From positions 64,001 to 128,000 of the forward strand of contig JAVZNC010000002.1 in the NCBI GenBank assembly GCA_038882955.1: a stretch of DNA of 64,000 nucleotides, given 5' to 3'. The notes beneath the pieces were generated by a model, which was not told the origin of the DNA, did no database searches, and was given only the letters and a program-made list of their open reading frames with translations. Every line of letters begins with the position of its first letter. Within the stretch, counting starts at the first letter, position 1. Made by a program: the position numbers and the translations under genes. The stretch is from Candidatus Bathyarchaeia archaeon (GTDB lineage Archaea; Thermoproteota; Bathyarchaeia; Bathyarchaeales; Bathycorpusculaceae). Below are positions 24,214 through 29,285 of the stretch, piece by piece.

Positions 24214-25200
24214 CTACCATTTAGGTGAAACAGCATCCAAAATTATCAGAAACATTATTGAGCCCAATGGTATTCCAATGTAGGTTAAGATGTTGAGCAA
24301 AATGTCTGGATCCAACGCGCCTAAGCCTCCGCCAAGCATGCTCATAACCGCAAGCATTATAACCAAAAGCAGTGGTCCAGTCACAAGCAGAGCCACATAA
24401 AACTCTGACAAGATTGATAGTGTGTCTGAAAATTTGCGTAGGCTAATCCTCTTCAGTTTCATGTACTGCGTTGACTTTTCGCGGAGGTAATGTGCCAAGT
24501 TGCCTCCAGAATGTATTGTTGAAATGAAACCTTCAAGCATTTCGCGGAACTTTTCAGATGGCGTCAGCCTAGAAGTTTCTTCAAGAGCAGAAATGACGTC
24601 TAAACCGAAGAGGTTTATGTTTCTAACAATGTTTTTCGCTTCGCTTGTCATTGCCAATGGCGGGGTCAAGTTTGAAAGTGAATAGAAAATCTTTTCTGGA
24701 GAAACGCCCGCACTTGAGAGAATCGCCATATAACCAGTTGTGAACGGCAACTCGTCCTCTAAGTCTCTCTTGACCTTGTCTGCACGGTAAACTGGGTAAA
24801 TGTAAAAGCCAATTATGGAAAAGGCGCAGGCGAACAGTCCTCCGCCGATGCCGAACATGAACGATGGCATTAGCGGAACTCCAAAGCCTAAGAAAAGTAT
24901 TGAAGGAATTATTGCCAATGCTGCTACTAAAAGCAGAATTGCCGTAAAAACTGTTAGGCTAACATACGCCTTAAAACTGACTCTAATTCCAGATTTCTGC
25001 AAGTTCAAGTCTAAATCTTTGAAAAGTGGCAAAAACCGCTCGGTTTTTCCTCCAATAAACTTGTATGCCATCGAATAGAACTCTACTTTCTGTGACTTGC
25101 TGGTTTTTGCAGCAGATTTTTCGCTTATATGTCCTTCGAAAAGCATCTTAAAACGTGTGCAAAAGCGCTCAATTTTTTCCAGAACTTTACTTGTTTTCAT
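24214..25200 (-). CDS. Pilus platform protein (T2SS-F/TadB-FlaJ like)
   Basis: ELPFTTGYMAILSSAG, TPSEKFREMLEG, SGGNL. Confidence 0.85.
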   Translation of the reverse strand: MKTSKVLEKIERFCTRFKMLFEGHISEKSAAKTSKSQKVEFYSMAYKFIGGKTERFLPLFKDLDLNLQKSGIRVSFKAYVSLTVFTAILLLVAALAIIPSILFLGFGVPLMPSFMFGIGGGLFACAFSIIGFYIYPVYRADKVKRDLEDELPFTTGYMAILSSAGVSPEKIFYSLSNLTPPLAMTSEAKNIVRNINLFGLDVISALEETSRLTPSEKFREMLEGFISTIHSGGNLAHYLREKSTQYMKLKRISLRKFSDTLSILSEFYVALLVTGPLLLVIMLAVMSMLGGGLGALDPDILLNILTYIGIPLGSIMFLIILDAVSPKW

Positions 25201-26756
25201 TTAAGTCCAACCCTTGCCTTCTGGAAGACACGGTTTGGGTTTGCATAGTACTCGCGAATCACGTTTGCCACGTCTGTGTGGCGTCTTATACCCTCACGAA
25301 CCATCCATTCTAATACTGTTTTTCTCCTATGTAGCTCGCGCCTAACATCATCCTCGCTTATGCCCGATTTGCTCATGCGCTCATCTAAAAGCGCACTGTG
25401 ACCAGAAAAAACGAATTTGTCTTCACGAGGGTTCCAGCGGAAGACATCCTCTGTTACGATATTCTTTTTCTTACGGTCAAATTCTATAACCTCAGTTGTT
25501 GTGGTCGCTCTTCTGGCTGGTCTTCCTTCAATTTCTGTTCTCGTCATAACCATTATGACGTCTGTCATGGCTATAAGCGACTTCGGAATATTCATGGGCT
25601 CGGATTCAAGCCTATTTATCACGGCTTCGACGGACTCTGCGTGTATTGTGCTCATTCCTAAGTGCCCAGTTGCCATCGCTTGGAAAAGTGTATAGGCTTC
25701 TTCTCCTCGTACCTCACCCACTATTATGTAGTCTGGTCTTTGTCTAACAGCCGCTTTTAACAAGTCAAAAAGGGTTATTGTGCCGCTTCTTTTGTCTTCA
25801 TGCCCAAAACCTAAGCGTATGACTGAGGGTATCCAGTTTTCGTGTGGTAGGTTAAGCTCTTGAGTGTCTTCTACGCTTACGATTTTCATTTCTGGCTTTA
25901 TGAACATTGAAAGGCAGTTCAGCATTGTTGTTTTTCCAGCCGCGACGCCTCCAGCTACAATTATTGAGGCTCTGTTTTCTATTATGTACCAGAGGTAGGC
26001 AGCCATTTCCGAGGAGATTGTGTTGAAGGCAATTAAGTCTGAAATCGTGAGCGGGTCAACTCTGAAACGTCTAATTGTGAATGTTGAGCCTCTGCGTGTA
26101 ACCTCGTTTCCATAAGTTAGTTGTATTCTGCTGCCGTCTGGAAGTGAAGCGTCCAATATCGGGGATGCTATTGATATGTTTTTTTCAGATAGGTATGCGA
26201 GGCGTACTATGAAGGAGTTTAGTTCTGCTTCATCCTTGAATATTATGTTTGTTGGTAAGGACTCGTAGATTCTGTGCCAAACGTATATTGGTATGTTTAC
26301 GCCGTCTGCCGATATATCCTCTATGAAGTGGTCTTTCATTAGGGGGTCTATTTTTCCGTAGCCTATGAAGTCCCTTACAATGTAATAAGTGAGTTTGTCA
26401 ACGGATTCTTGTGGGATTTTTAGGCGGTATTTTTTGATTATTTCCTTTGTCTTCTCTATTAGGTAGTTTTCCGCCTTTTCTCTTGTTTCTATGTCTTTTA
26501 AGTTTACGTCAACCTCCTCCATCAAAAACCGCTTTATTTCTTGTAGTTTTTGCTCCTCTTCTTTTTGCAGTGTTGGCTCTATGATCTCATACATTGTTTT
26601 TTGGGTTTCCGGATTTTTGACTATCGCTGCATAAACGTATGGCTCTTTTACTGGGTAAACTTCTCTGAATACTGTTGGTTTTTTTGTTTCTTCTTTCACT
26701 ATTATGCCTATCTCTGCCTGTTCAGTCTGCTCTGTGGCTTTTGGTTTTCTTGGCAT
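25197..26756 (-). CDS. Type II/IV secretion ATPase (VirB11/FlaI/TadA)
   Basis: GGVAAGKT, EDTQE, RQRPDYIIVGEVRGEE, TGH...TIHA. Confidence 0.93.
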   Translation of the reverse strand: MPRKPKATEQTEQAEIGIIVKEETKKPTVFREVYPVKEPYVYAAIVKNPETQKTMYEIIEPTLQKEEEQKLQEIKRFLMEEVDVNLKDIETREKAENYLIEKTKEIIKKYRLKIPQESVDKLTYYIVRDFIGYGKIDPLMKDHFIEDISADGVNIPIYVWHRIYESLPTNIIFKDEAELNSFIVRLAYLSEKNISIASPILDASLPDGSRIQLTYGNEVTRRGSTFTIRRFRVDPLTISDLIAFNTISSEMAAYLWYIIENRASIIVAGGVAAGKTTMLNCLSMFIKPEMKIVSVEDTQELNLPHENWIPSVIRLGFGHEDKRSGTITLFDLLKAAVRQRPDYIIVGEVRGEEAYTLFQAMATGHLGMSTIHAESVEAVINRLESEPMNIPKSLIAMTDVIMVMTRTEIEGRPARRATTTTEVIEFDRKKKNIVTEDVFRWNPREDKFVFSGHSALLDERMSKSGISEDDVRRELHRRKTVLEWMVREGIRRHTDVANVIREYYANPNRVFQKARVGLK

Positions 26757-26855: not shown

Positions 26856-26912
26856 CTGAAAAAACAAAAACTAAACAAAATCAAACCTAAAATTAAAGAA
26901 AAACCTTTAGAA
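26856..26912 (-). terminator. T-rich archaeal terminator region after rpl41e
   Basis: Several T runs on the minus strand immediately after the eL41 stop. Confidence 0.45.
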
Positions 26913-26918
26913 CAAACT

Positions 26919-26996
26919 CTACTTGTACCGTGCCCTTCTTTTTTGCCGCTTCTTCTTCTGTCTCTTCATCCTCTTCTTTTTCCATTTAGCCCGTAT
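26919..26996 (-). CDS. rpl41e: Ribosomal protein eL41 (eS32), ATA start codon
   Basis: Translation (M)RAKWKKKRMKRQKKKRQKRRARYK*, 25 aa, aligns without gaps to eukaryotic eL41 [25 protein letters not shown]. Confidence 0.88.
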   Translation of the reverse strand: MRAKWKKKRMKRQKKKRQKRRARYK

Positions 26997-27020
26997 CTTC
27001 TACACGCTCCATACAAGCGC

Positions 27021-27644
27021 CTATTCTATTGTTGCATGCCTACGCTTTAAATCCTCTTCCGTCCGCCCCATCCTATGCATCAACTCAACAACAAGACTAT
27101 CCAAAAAAACCATACAGTTGTTCTCGAAGACACTTCCAAGTGGAGTTAGGGGCTCCCTCTCGCCCATAATTTGCCTAGCCAAATAATCCTCTTCTCTCGG
27201 CCACCCAGTTTTTGTTCTTCCTTTCACCGTTACTATGTGATCCGCCATTCTTCCAAGCTGGGATTCGGGAAACGATGTTATGGCGATCACCGTTGCGCCT
27301 ATTTCCTTTGCCGCTGCGCTAGCTGTTAAAACCATTTTTGTTGAGCCTGTTCCTGAAATTGCTATTAACAAGTCACCTTTTTCGGCTGCGGGAGTTATGG
27401 TTTCGCCTAGGAAGTAAACGTTGAATCCCAGATTCATGAGGCGCAGTGCAAAGGCTCTTGCGACGAAACCGCTTCTTCCCATGCCGACAATGAATATTTT
27501 CTTGTCTTTCGCTTCTAAAAGCAACTCAATTAGCCTTTCAACTTCCTTCATATTCAGTTCTTCAATTGAGCTTTTTATTCCGGCAATTATTTCGTTTGCC
27601 GCTGCCTTTAACCATTCCAATTTTTCAAGCTCCGAGAAAACCAT
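27021..27644 (-). CDS. hxlB: 6-phospho-3-hexuloisomerase (SIS domain)
   Basis: GMGRSG, GETITPA, ISGTG, PLGSVFE, RHATIE. Confidence 0.9.
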   Translation of the reverse strand: MVFSELEKLEWLKAAANEIIAGIKSSIEELNMKEVERLIELLLEAKDKKIFIVGMGRSGFVARAFALRLMNLGFNVYFLGETITPAAEKGDLLIAISGTGSTKMVLTASAAAKEIGATVIAITSFPESQLGRMADHIVTVKGRTKTGWPREEDYLARQIMGEREPLTPLGSVFENNCMVFLDSLVVELMHRMGRTEEDLKRRHATIE

Positions 27645-27675: not shown

Positions 27676-28464
27676 TTAAATGAAACCTAAAAGTTTGCTT
27701 AATGAAGGAATTGCGAATGTTAAACGAATGTAGATGGCTGCGGCTAAAATTCCGATGGTTAGGGCTAGAAGAATAAAATCTTCACTGTGCATCTTCAGAA
27801 CGTAAAGGTTTGTGCGTTTCTTTGTTGCTCCCCACGCTCGGGATTCCATGGCTTCAGCGAGTTCGAGACTTCTTCTTATGGCGCTTATTATGAGCGGTAT
27901 CAATATCGGAATGTAATTTCTAATTCTTTTTAAGAAGTTTCCGCGTTCAAGCTCCAGTCCCCTTGCCTTTTGGGCATCCATTATTGTTTGGGCTTCTTCA
28001 GCGAGCACTGGAACGAAGCGCACTGCCGTTGTGAAGGCGAATGTAAACTCGTATGGCACATGCGTCTGTTCTAGGGCGAGGCTTAAAGTGTCTGGCGAAG
28101 TTGTTAAGAAGAATATTGAGAAGGATTCGACGAGTACTATAAAGCGCAATGTCAATGCTGAGGCATTTTCTAGACTTACCGCTAATGGGTAATGCGTAAA
28201 GAAATACGTTACAACAAAGTTTGTTAGAAAAATTATTGTTGCCAGAAAGGCTGCACCTCGCATAGAACGCATCCATTCACGTTTTACTCTGGCTAATAGG
28301 ACGAGGGGAACTTGCATAACAAACAGCACCATAAGCGGGATAAGCTCGCTAAAAATTATTGCTATCACAAATATTGCACATACATAAATGAACTTTATTC
28401 TAGGATCTAAATCATGAATTGGCGAATGAACCTTCCTAAACTTTAAGCCATCAAAAACGCTCAC
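27676..28464 (-). CDS. ecfT: ECF transporter transmembrane component T
   Basis: LDPRIK, RFVP, AQKARG, AMESRA. Confidence 0.92.
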   Translation of the reverse strand: MSVFDGLKFRKVHSPIHDLDPRIKFIYVCAIFVIAIIFSELIPLMVLFVMQVPLVLLARVKREWMRSMRGAAFLATIIFLTNFVVTYFFTHYPLAVSLENASALTLRFIVLVESFSIFFLTTSPDTLSLALEQTHVPYEFTFAFTTAVRFVPVLAEEAQTIMDAQKARGLELERGNFLKRIRNYIPILIPLIISAIRRSLELAEAMESRAWGATKKRTNLYVLKMHSEDFILLALTIGILAAAIYIRLTFAIPSLSKLLGFI

Positions 28465-29285
28465 GGTTTCTTTCCCTCTAAAACGTTGAGCAAAATTTCG
28501 CGCGCTTCATAAACATCGATGACATCCTTCTTTAATCCCAAATCTGACAGTTGCGAAAAGATTTGTGTCACCTGCGGTTGGACAATTGATGCTTGAGTTA
28601 GAAGCTCCTGATTTGTTAGCACTTCTTTTGCTGGTCCGTCTGCAACAATTTTTCCTTCGCGCATCAACACGACCCTCGGGTTGCATTCTGCCACAAACTC
28701 GACGTCATGCGTGACTATTACAACCGTTTTTCGCTGAGTTTTCATTTGCATTATGAATTGCCGAAGTTTCTCCTTTTGCTGGTAATCCTGTCCTATTGTT
28801 GGCTCGTCCAAAATGAGTATTTTTGGGTTCCAAGCCAAGACTGAGGCTAATGCCACACGTTTTCTTTCGCCCCCGCTCAGCATGAAAGGCGAGGTTTTTC
28901 TGTATTGCGTTAAACCCAGAAGGTTTAGCGCCCATGTTACGCGCCTCTTTATTATGTTTTCTTTGAATCCGAAGTTTCGCAGCGCGAAGGCTATTTCTTC
29001 CTCGACTGTTTCGCTGAAAAGCTGATGGTCTGGGTTTTGGAACACAAACCCAACATTTCTGGCTAACGTTGCCACGCTTACTTTCGTTGTTTCAACTCCG
29101 TCAACTAGCACTCTGCCCCTCGTTGGTTTGAGGAGTCCGTTAAAATGTTTGACCAGTGTTGTTTTTCCAGCCCCGTTCTGTCCCATTATTGCCACGAATT
29201 CTCCATTCTCTATTTTTAGTGATACTCCTTTTAGGGCTTCAACGCCGTTTGGATATGTGAAATAGACATCTTCAACTTCAATCAT
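28461..29285 (-). CDS. ecfA2: ECF transporter ATPase A2
   Basis: GQNGAGKT, FQNPDHQ, LSGGE, DEPT. Confidence 0.9.
   Translation of the reverse strand: MIEVEDVYFTYPNGVEALKGVSLKIENGEFVAIMGQNGAGKTTLVKHFNGLLKPTRGRVLVDGVETTKVSVATLARNVGFVFQNPDHQLFSETVEEEIAFALRNFGFKENIIKRRVTWALNLLGLTQYRKTSPFMLSGGERKRVALASVLAWNPKILILDEPTIGQDYQQKEKLRQFIMQMKTQRKTVVIVTHDVEFVAECNPRVVLMREGKIVADGPAKEVLTNQELLTQASIVQPQVTQIFSQLSDLGLKKDVIDVYEAREILLNVLEGKKP

Follow-up and report, generated by a model that had tools for sequence, protein, structure and literature searches.

The 64,000-nucleotide (nt) stretch of DNA from the hot-spring organism Candidatus Bathyarchaeia archaeon analysed here (the window, at its full length) carries on its minus strand, at 26996..26919, a short open reading frame (ORF) that resembles the gene for the small ribosomal protein eL41, also called eS32. 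It reads ATA CGG GCT AAA TGG ... TAC AAG TAG and encodes (I/M)RAKWKKKRMKRQKKKRQKRRARYK. A GGAG element at 27010..27007 is followed by a 10-nt spacer, CGTGTAGAAG, and then by ATA at 26996..26994. The in-frame codons that precede ATA are GTG (27005..27003), TAG (27002..27000) and AAG, and because TAG stands two codons upstream, no ATG, GTG or TTG further 5′ can open the eL41 frame. Translated through the leader, this frame gives ...ATIE, a stop, ALVWSV, a second stop, K, and then IRAKWKKKRMKRQKKKRQKRRARYK up to the stop of eL41, the first of these stops being that of the upstream gene hxlB. When ORFs are listed with the full start set of NCBI table 11, the frame appears as 26919..26996, 25 aa, with ATA as its start. 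The original prediction made from this DNA had described the GGAG-N10-ATA arrangement, the 25-residue frame, the upstream TAG, the sole in-frame ATG at residue 10 and an out-of-frame mini-ORF (ATG 27012, MERVEDTG and a stop), and all of these are present just as it described them (Table 1). We consider it very probable that this is a real, hitherto unannotated eL41 gene of the eukaryote-like 25-residue form, whose translation would be initiated at a near-cognate codon under the direction of a Shine-Dalgarno (SD) sequence, at AUA here and at AUH (AUA, AUC or AUU; ATH in the DNA) in most of the family. Near-cognate initiation at AUA was also the original prediction, and it is supported at that same level by a clade-wide ATH codon, by nearby upstream stops and by the lack of a canonical start.

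Residues 2-25 of the window protein score 16.6 bits against the Pfam model PF05162 (Ribosomal_L41), or 17.8 bits with Met1, under the gathering cut-off of 22.3. An orthologue with an ATG start from a sister family (L031), 80% identical to the window protein, scores 30.2 bits, above this cut-off, and four further orthologues score 14.4-21.3 bits. Low scores alone mean little, since weak matches to the model also occur in 8 of 14 control genomes, six bacterial, none over the cut-off. A phmmer search of PDB chains at E values up to 1 returned 15 distinct sequences, every one of them named eL41, L41 or eS32. The best of these are 25-aa eukaryotic eL41 proteins (fly, Neurospora, wheat, yeast and others) that align 1-25 with 1-25 at E values of 0.01-0.09; no Pyrococcus-type eL41 chain is among the matches at E up to 1. 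The description of the gene as eukaryote-length holds; the upstream stops leave no space for the 14-residue N-terminal extension of Pyrococcus eL41. Fourteen columns are invariant among 12 diverse orthologues (R2, K4, W5, K6, K7, K8, M10, K14, K16, R17, R20, R21, R23 and K25). The ORF goes beyond what chance would produce, because it is the sole PF05162-like place in the 1.54-Mb genome, because a protein search with codon 1 unconstrained detected a colinear ORF in 43 of 61 of the order's genomes, the window's own included, and because it aligns from end to end with eukaryotic eL41. Taken together, these comparisons point to a conserved single-copy gene under purifying selection.

Exact look-up of 10 eL41 peptides from these archaea, four of them from ATG-start loci, found none in a collection of 15 billion proteins. 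Because the ATG-start peptides are equally absent, the genes appear to go unannotated mainly on account of their small size, and the expectation that gene callers would miss this gene is borne out chiefly for that reason. In practical terms, gene callers and protein databases miss these eL41 genes altogether.

The start codon of the window gene is shared by its relatives, for which we use handles for families (f), genera (g), genomes (G) and loci (L). All three other species of the window's genus have ATA. Two of them (G001 and G002) have GTG TAG nnn ATA as in the window, and the third (G003) reads GTG TGG AAG ATA. Among 30 loci recovered by a search in which codon 1 was free, the first codon is ATA in nine, ATC in six, ATT in five, ATG in nine and TTG in one. 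A pattern search of the whole order found a match in 159 of 401 genomes; its first codon was limited to A/G/T-T-N, so that CTG and ACG would be invisible to it, and the start codons of the 150 listed matches were counted by hand. They comprise 76 ATH, 67 ATG, six TTG and one GTG, distributed among families as given in Table 2. Two of the pattern matches in the window's family, f1, are not eL41-like ORFs (G019 and G259). Among the listed matches, 25 genera of f1 have ATH only and four have ATG only (also a hand count). Beyond f1, ATH is found in families f3, f4, f6, f7, f8, f10 and f11, and ATA, ATC and ATT are intermixed within single genera (g13, g66, g71 and g60).

Table 2. First codon of eL41 by family, among the 150 listed matches of the pattern search
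Family	ATH	ATG	TTG	GTG
f1 (window's family; includes two spurious rows)	59	6	1	0
f10	3	0	0	0
f7	6	1	2	0
f4	1	0	0	0
f8	1	0	0	0
f6	5	17	2	0
f11	1	40	1	1
f5	0	2	0	0
f2	0	1	0	0

The site itself is also covered by assembled metagenome sequence. One Logan contig of run X1 (26971-27054) is identical to the window, with the qualification that these are contigs rather than reads and that X1 is possibly the sample from which the window came. The variants listed for contigs of the hot-spring metagenome runs X1, X4 and X6 include none at 26994-26996. The close relatives do not show ATG at 26994-26996: all three congeners have ATA and most of the family has ATH, often with a stop two or three codons upstream. 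A point mutation or sequencing error, which the original prediction had entertained as a cause of ATA, is ruled out by this clade-wide state. ATH as first codon of eL41 is the rule for most of the family and for several further families within the order, and no accident of the window genome.

We examined where coding begins by using 120 distinct loci with their flanks (82 ATH, 32 ATG, five TTG and one GTG), a set deliberately enriched in ATH whose proportions are therefore meaningless. Codons 2 and 4-8 were fixed by the search pattern, and their constancy, being circular, was not counted. Upstream of the proposed start the codons vary freely. At codon -1 there are 27 codons, which specify 15 residues, and at codon -2 there are 43 different codons, with 13 stops included. 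Inside the frame, residues are retained while synonymous codons change: codon 3 is Ala in 108 loci and Lys in 12, through six codons (four for Ala), and the residues of codons 9-25 are kept through up to 12 codons each. Codon 10 is ATG in 103 loci and encodes V, Q, K, L, I or A in the other 17, and the stops of the 120 orthologues are TAG in 55, TAA in 48 and TGA in 17. Amino-acid conservation accompanied by synonymous change starts at codon 2 of the eL41 frame, which indicates that coding begins at codon 1. In 24 of the 82 ATH loci there is no in-frame ATG, GTG or TTG between the nearest upstream stop and ATH, and in 18 an in-frame stop lies no more than three codons upstream. These 18 loci represent at least 11 genus-level lineages in families f1, f4, f6, f7, f10 and f11 (g1, g34, g60, g70, g73 and one more in or near f1; g92 of f6; g51 of f11; and lineages of f4, f7 and f10).

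The second line of evidence is the SD element. The 16S rRNA of this genome has the 3′ end ...GGATCACCTCCT, so that a full SD would be GGAGGTGATCC. GGAG or GGGG stands at -14 in 62 of 82 ATH loci versus 2 of 32 ATG loci, and the same counts, 62 of 82 and 2 of 32, apply to GTG at -9. The predicted energy of the duplex between the SD and the 16S tail has a median of -9.4 kcal/mol for ATH loci versus -5.8 kcal/mol for ATG loci; it is at or below -7 kcal/mol in 81 of the 82 ATH loci and below -8 kcal/mol in 4 of the 32 ATG loci. The difference is significant by a Mann-Whitney test (p = 8e-14), a value overstated because the sequences are related. The SD of the window gene, at -9.4 kcal/mol, belongs to the strongest 11% of those preceding 1012 long-ORF starts in the genome. 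The register of its GUG, at -9..-7, is the same as that in the strong SD of the Pyrococcus abyssi aEF1A mRNA, (-17)AUUUGGAGGUGAUUUAA-AUG, which a report on initiation complexes describes as used for that work (PMC6237735). Genus g51 provides a candidate case of SD strengthening upon loss of ATG. The sole ATT locus of family f11, L098 (G153), belongs to this genus and carries AGGAGGTG in perfect form. In its ATG congeners the sequence is GAAGATGA-like, and the ATG or GTG congeners L115-L117 and L104 have a weakened SD such as GGGAAGATGA or GGGAAGCTGA.

If near-cognate initiation operates as we propose, the strong SD (GGAG-N-GUG, with GUG at -9..-7) would position the 30S subunit with AUA in the P site; initiator Met-tRNA would there pair with A1 and U2 and the mismatch at the third base would be tolerated. 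The initiator tRNA would presumably insert Met at AUA, and the strength of the SD would offset the weakness of the AUH codon. The gene for aIF1 (a SUI1 homologue) shows nothing unusual at its own start, where ordinary ATG and GTG options are present. A search with aragorn found 33 tRNAs, two of them with a CAU anticodon, a set too incomplete to bear on the initiator tRNA.

Several observations weigh against initiation at AUH. First, no RNA runs are on record for the window organism; run X6 is labelled metatranscriptomic, is flagged as probably DNA, and its contigs over the hxlB-eL41 junction were not counted as transcription. Second, a review reports that aIF1 of S. solfataricus discriminates against AUU in vitro (PMC4705826), and so AUH ought to be an inefficient start for a protein that each ribosome is expected to hold once. 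Third, the organism does not seem to be generally permissive for AUH. In a crude genome-wide test, restricted to long ORFs and to codons at least 15 codons 5′ of the first canonical start, an SD-like motif (GGAG, GAGG or GGTG within -16 to -6) precedes ATA in 3.7%, ATC in 4.6% and ATT in 3.3% of cases, compared with 4.2% for all codons and 17.5-32.5% for first canonical starts, and there is thus no enrichment before ATH. Fourth, only two phylogenetically independent pairs that compare SD strength with start codon lie on supported branches (p 0.5), and the link between the two rests on related sequences. Fifth, a tree of hxlB from 56 loci, a quick search in which 29 of 53 inner branches are unsupported, gives no sign that ATG is disfavoured. 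It requires 20 or more changes of the start codon, with 14 changes among ATA, ATC and ATT and at least five between ATH and ATG or TTG, and ATG lineages are nested within ATH clades; the proportion of the two kinds of change is roughly the 1:2 expected of a freely drifting third base, as far as so weakly supported a tree can tell. Finally, 47 of the 82 ATH loci have an open in-frame GTG three codons 5′ of ATH, from which a 28-aa product would be possible.

This last point underlies the alternative that survives best, though we consider it improbable: that the GTG at -9 is the true start in most lineages, yielding a 28-aa protein of the form M-x-x-I-RAKW... in which ATH encodes an internal Ile, and that lineages with a stop after GTG, the window's included, are exceptions or carry broken genes. 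The correlated presence of GTG and ATH noted above (62 of 82 versus 2 of 32 loci) would also be accommodated by such a start. However, TAG or TAA comes immediately after the GTG in 11 ATH loci from several genera, and close relatives alternate between TGG and TAG (g1) or between CAA and TAA (g70) at this codon while the ORF is otherwise perfectly conserved, which shows that the codon after GTG is free of coding constraint. Contigs of runs X1 and X6 likewise show the TAG/TGG polymorphism, at 27001. Moreover, GTG is out of frame, with N7 spacing, in G281 and G269 (L084 and L085), is missing from the 14 nt 5′ of ATH in 16 of 82 loci, and is replaced in families f7 and f10, which read GGAG TAG GTT GAA ATA. 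The GGAG lies 1 nt from GTG, too near to act as its SD, and the two codons between GTG and ATH carry no amino-acid constraint. Because the GTG abuts GGAG, is followed by stops, can be out of frame and can be missing, it is better regarded as part of the SD than as a start.

Initiation at the internal ATG of codon 10, which would produce a 16-residue peptide and leave the preceding nine codons conserved for some other reason, is very doubtful. This ATG is the sole canonical start codon of the frame in the window, but the 17 orthologues that lack ATG at codon 10 would have no such start. In addition, codons 3 and 9 hold Ala or Arg/Lys through 6-8 codons, the match to eukaryotic eL41 starts at residue 1 and takes in all 25 residues, and the conserved SD suits codon 1, lying 37 nt 5′ of codon 10.

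Less credible still is the view that the ORF is an artefact, a decaying pseudogene or a chance ORF, through an error at 26994 or through loss of ATG in a gene that is no longer expressed. eL41 is dispensable in yeast according to a review (PMC9932298), searches of several large genera in the window's family failed to detect it, and the window protein falls under the Pfam cut-off, all of which would suit such a view. Against this, the assemblies with ATH number more than 80 and come from many studies, the protein bears the marks of strong purifying selection, conservation of the SD is specific to ATH loci and one exact contig spans the site. The least probable proposal, raised in the original prediction, is that ribosomes start at the out-of-frame mini-ORF and shift by +1 into the eL41 frame, which we reject: the window has this ATG at -16, overlapping the SD, as do 20 of the 82 ATH loci, and the other 62 lack it, a canonical start is open in either alternative frame in only 35 of 82, the spacer that would have to hold the shift site varies at every position, and RNAalifold found no conserved RNA structure in -45..+33 (0 pairs, 57 of the 82 loci aligned).

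Recoding of TAG, or read-through from hxlB or from GTG, was also considered and rejected, as TAG ends 345 of 1364 long ORFs in the window genome and eL41 itself.

In a scan of GTDB species genomes for the ATH form, all 21 titled eL41-like 25-codon ORFs among the matches listed come from metagenome-assembled genomes of Bathyarchaeia or Bathyarchaeota, and those listed matches from bacteria and other archaea that were examined encode no eL41-like 25-residue ORF. In a sample of the phylum outside the order, 2 of 354 genomes contain the strict pattern, one being an ATG-start 25-mer and the other a chance match inside a long ORF. Other forms occur within Bathyarchaeia. Families f74 and f78 (L276, L277, L279, L281, L282 and L286) have a 30-aa protein, MARKH(H/R)SKK(T/S)KKKKM..RRARYK, without tryptophan and with an ATG start, and family f81 (L274, L278 and L280) has a separate 25-aa form, also with an ATG start. 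Together with the form found in the order, this means that at least three N-terminal forms of eL41 coexist within Bathyarchaeia. In genus g40 of family f7, two loci (L275 and L285) read M-Y-A-RKKWKKKEV..., with ATG two codons 5′ of the usual first Arg, and the eL41-like ORF of G042 has a 9-residue tail past RYK.

Within the window's own family, the gene is unevenly distributed. The largest genera of f1 (g17, g31, g56, g3 and g11; genomes of mostly 1.5-3.5 Mb) yielded no credible eL41, and most small-genome genera have the gene. By pattern search, no credible eL41 was found in large genera of the family (g17, 2 of 89 genomes, both matches judged spurious; g31, 0 of 23). The Pfam model gave no credible eL41 in five genomes of the family (G019, G033, G005, G062 and G013), and an alignment model gave no eL41 match in sampled genomes of g17, g31, g56 and g3. 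Either the gene has been lost from the large genera or a diverged form was missed, and failure to find it should not be equated with its absence. In runs X1 and X6 there is one contig apiece in which 26853 is joined to 27019, so that 165 nt, the whole eL41 ORF with its leader, are skipped (side 41, likeness threshold 90). Some related organism of these habitats may thus have no eL41 behind hxlB, or a diverged segment in its place.

The features of the locus are collected in Table 1. The gene 5′ of eL41 is identified as hxlB by a score of 180.7 bits against TIGR03127 (cut-off 160), and an hxlB-like ORF lies directly 5′ of eL41 in 56 of 59 long loci. The two genes are probably co-transcribed, with eL41 as the last gene of the hxlB transcription unit. 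A scan of the region for bacterial-type terminators gave no match. Further upstream of hxlB are an ECF (energy-coupling factor) transporter's T and ATPase components (27676-29285, minus strand), and 3′ of eL41 are a FlaI-like archaellum/type IV ATPase (435 bits, under the equivalog cut-off of 550) and then a membrane protein (24214-26756, minus strand). With neighbours such as these, eL41 lies outside any ribosomal-protein operon. Two ORFs in other frames also cover eL41, one at 26893-26985 on the minus strand (MEKEEDEETEEE...) and a Leu/Phe-rich one at 26923-27186 on the plus strand; both look like by-products of an AAG/AGA-rich coding sequence rather than genes.

Table 1. Features of the eL41 locus, in window coordinates (SD, Shine-Dalgarno sequence)
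Feature	Position	Strand	Remarks
eL41 (eS32) coding sequence	26922..26996	-	25 codons, (M/I)RAKWKKKRMKRQKKKRQKRRARYK; 78-nt ORF including the stop
ATA, putative initiation codon	26996..26994	-	followed by 24 more sense codons
TAG stop of eL41	26921..26919	-	
In-frame TAG closing the frame, two codons 5′ of ATA	27000..27002	-	preceded directly by GTG
Internal in-frame ATG, codon 10	26969..26967	-	sole in-frame ATG; not taken as the start
SD, GGAG-C-GTG	27003..27010	-	GGAG at -14..-11, GTG at -9..-7; complementary to the organism's own 16S 3′ end
Out-of-frame mini-ORF, MERVEDTG and stop	26986..27012	-	ATG 27012 overlaps the SD (ATGGAG); incidental
hxlB (6-phospho-3-hexuloisomerase)	27021..27644	-	24 nt 5′ of eL41, same frame, TAG stop
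T-rich spacer 3′ of eL41	26857..26918	-	possible oligo-T transcription end, judged from its sequence

The comparisons among loci show an AUH state that is both old and widespread and that goes together with a strong SD, and two readings of it remain. One is compensated drift, in which selection holds the total rate of initiation and a strong SD permits any AUN codon. The other is regulatory use, which the original prediction had mentioned as a possibility. Specifically, the AUH start of eL41 might serve as the sensing arm of a homeostat similar to that of infC, the bacterial gene for initiation factor 3 (IF3), with eL41 acting as a start-codon fidelity factor in a feedback loop. We regard this idea as rather unlikely. 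It draws on three published points: eL41 of P. abyssi contacts both aIF2-gamma and the network of modified rRNA bases around the P site, aIF1 of S. solfataricus rejects AUU in vitro, and bacterial infC is autoregulated through AUU (the last two as reviewed in PMC4705826). Small subunits free of eL41 would, on this idea, be less able to reject a P-site codon mismatched at its third base, and would thereby translate the strongly SD-anchored eL41 mRNA by preference until the pocket for the protein had been filled. Such a loop is concrete and testable because eL41 is the one ribosomal protein structurally proposed to participate in start-codon selection.

Compared with eukaryotic eL41 (eS32, RPL41; PF05162), the window protein has the same 25 residues and follows MRAKW[RK]KKRM..R.K from end to end with the fly, fungal, plant, human and yeast chains; it is likewise extremely basic and predicted to form a single helix. 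It differs in belonging to an archaeal host, in its AUA, AUC or AUU start behind an SD in a prokaryotic operon, and in a C-terminus that reads RYK where eukaryotes have RSK. The eL41 of the euryarchaeon P. abyssi belongs to the same ribosomal protein family. As described in the structural report (PMC7005279), it has 37 aa, lies on the 30S subunit in a pocket that h27, h44 and h45 make next to the network of modified bases at the P site, and touches aIF2-gamma. Its 14-residue N-terminal extension reaches that network, whereas in-frame stops two or three codons upstream exclude such an extension here. Any effect of eL41 on the stringency of start-codon selection is given as a proposal only, on structural grounds from P. 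abyssi, in the accounts that raise it (PMC7005279 and PMC7531240). With regard to distribution, eL41 is tabulated as absent from Bathyarchaeota in one review (PMC9932298, Table 1) and is listed elsewhere as absent outside a few euryarchaeal and DPANN lineages (PMC9258230). Our literature search, whose scope stopped short of subscription journals and supplementary files such as the eL41 alignment of Coureux 2020, found no report of a Bathyarchaeia eL41 or of a clade-wide archaeal AUH start. A eukaryote-type 25-residue eL41 in 159 of 401 genomes of one order, together with the forms in three other families, changes the picture of which archaea have eL41 and in which form.

With regard to the start codon, the passages on archaeal initiation in two reviews name AUG, GUG and UUG only (PMC7531240 and PMC4705826), and a ribosome-profiling study of H. 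volcanii mentions about 30% near-cognate candidate sites, which it set aside (PMC7261190). For the Asgard tubulin gene AtubA, a rare ATT start behind a plausible ribosome-binding site has been proposed from sequence (PMC13394414). That proposal concerns a single gene in a single genome and derives from a missing beta-strand, whereas the ATH start of eL41 is common to dozens of genera in which nearby stops exclude the alternatives. The closest parallel is bacterial infC, whose conserved AUU start is discriminated against by its own product, IF3, resulting in autoregulation as summarized in a review (PMC4705826). In both systems a gene of the translation machinery keeps a start that is near-cognate at the third base across a clade. 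The two differ in that ATG orthologues of eL41 are common, the hxlB tree is without sign of selection against ATG, and a role of eL41 in stringency is only proposed. Near-cognate AUH initiation is known from bacteria, and here it appears clade-wide in archaea, on a ribosomal protein located next to the P site. As a natural case of AUA, AUC and AUU starts with comparative support, the eL41 leader is ready for use in testing how the archaeal 30S subunit, aIF1 and the SD share the task of start selection. The apparent AUH start of eL41 is rare for archaea and may be regulatory.

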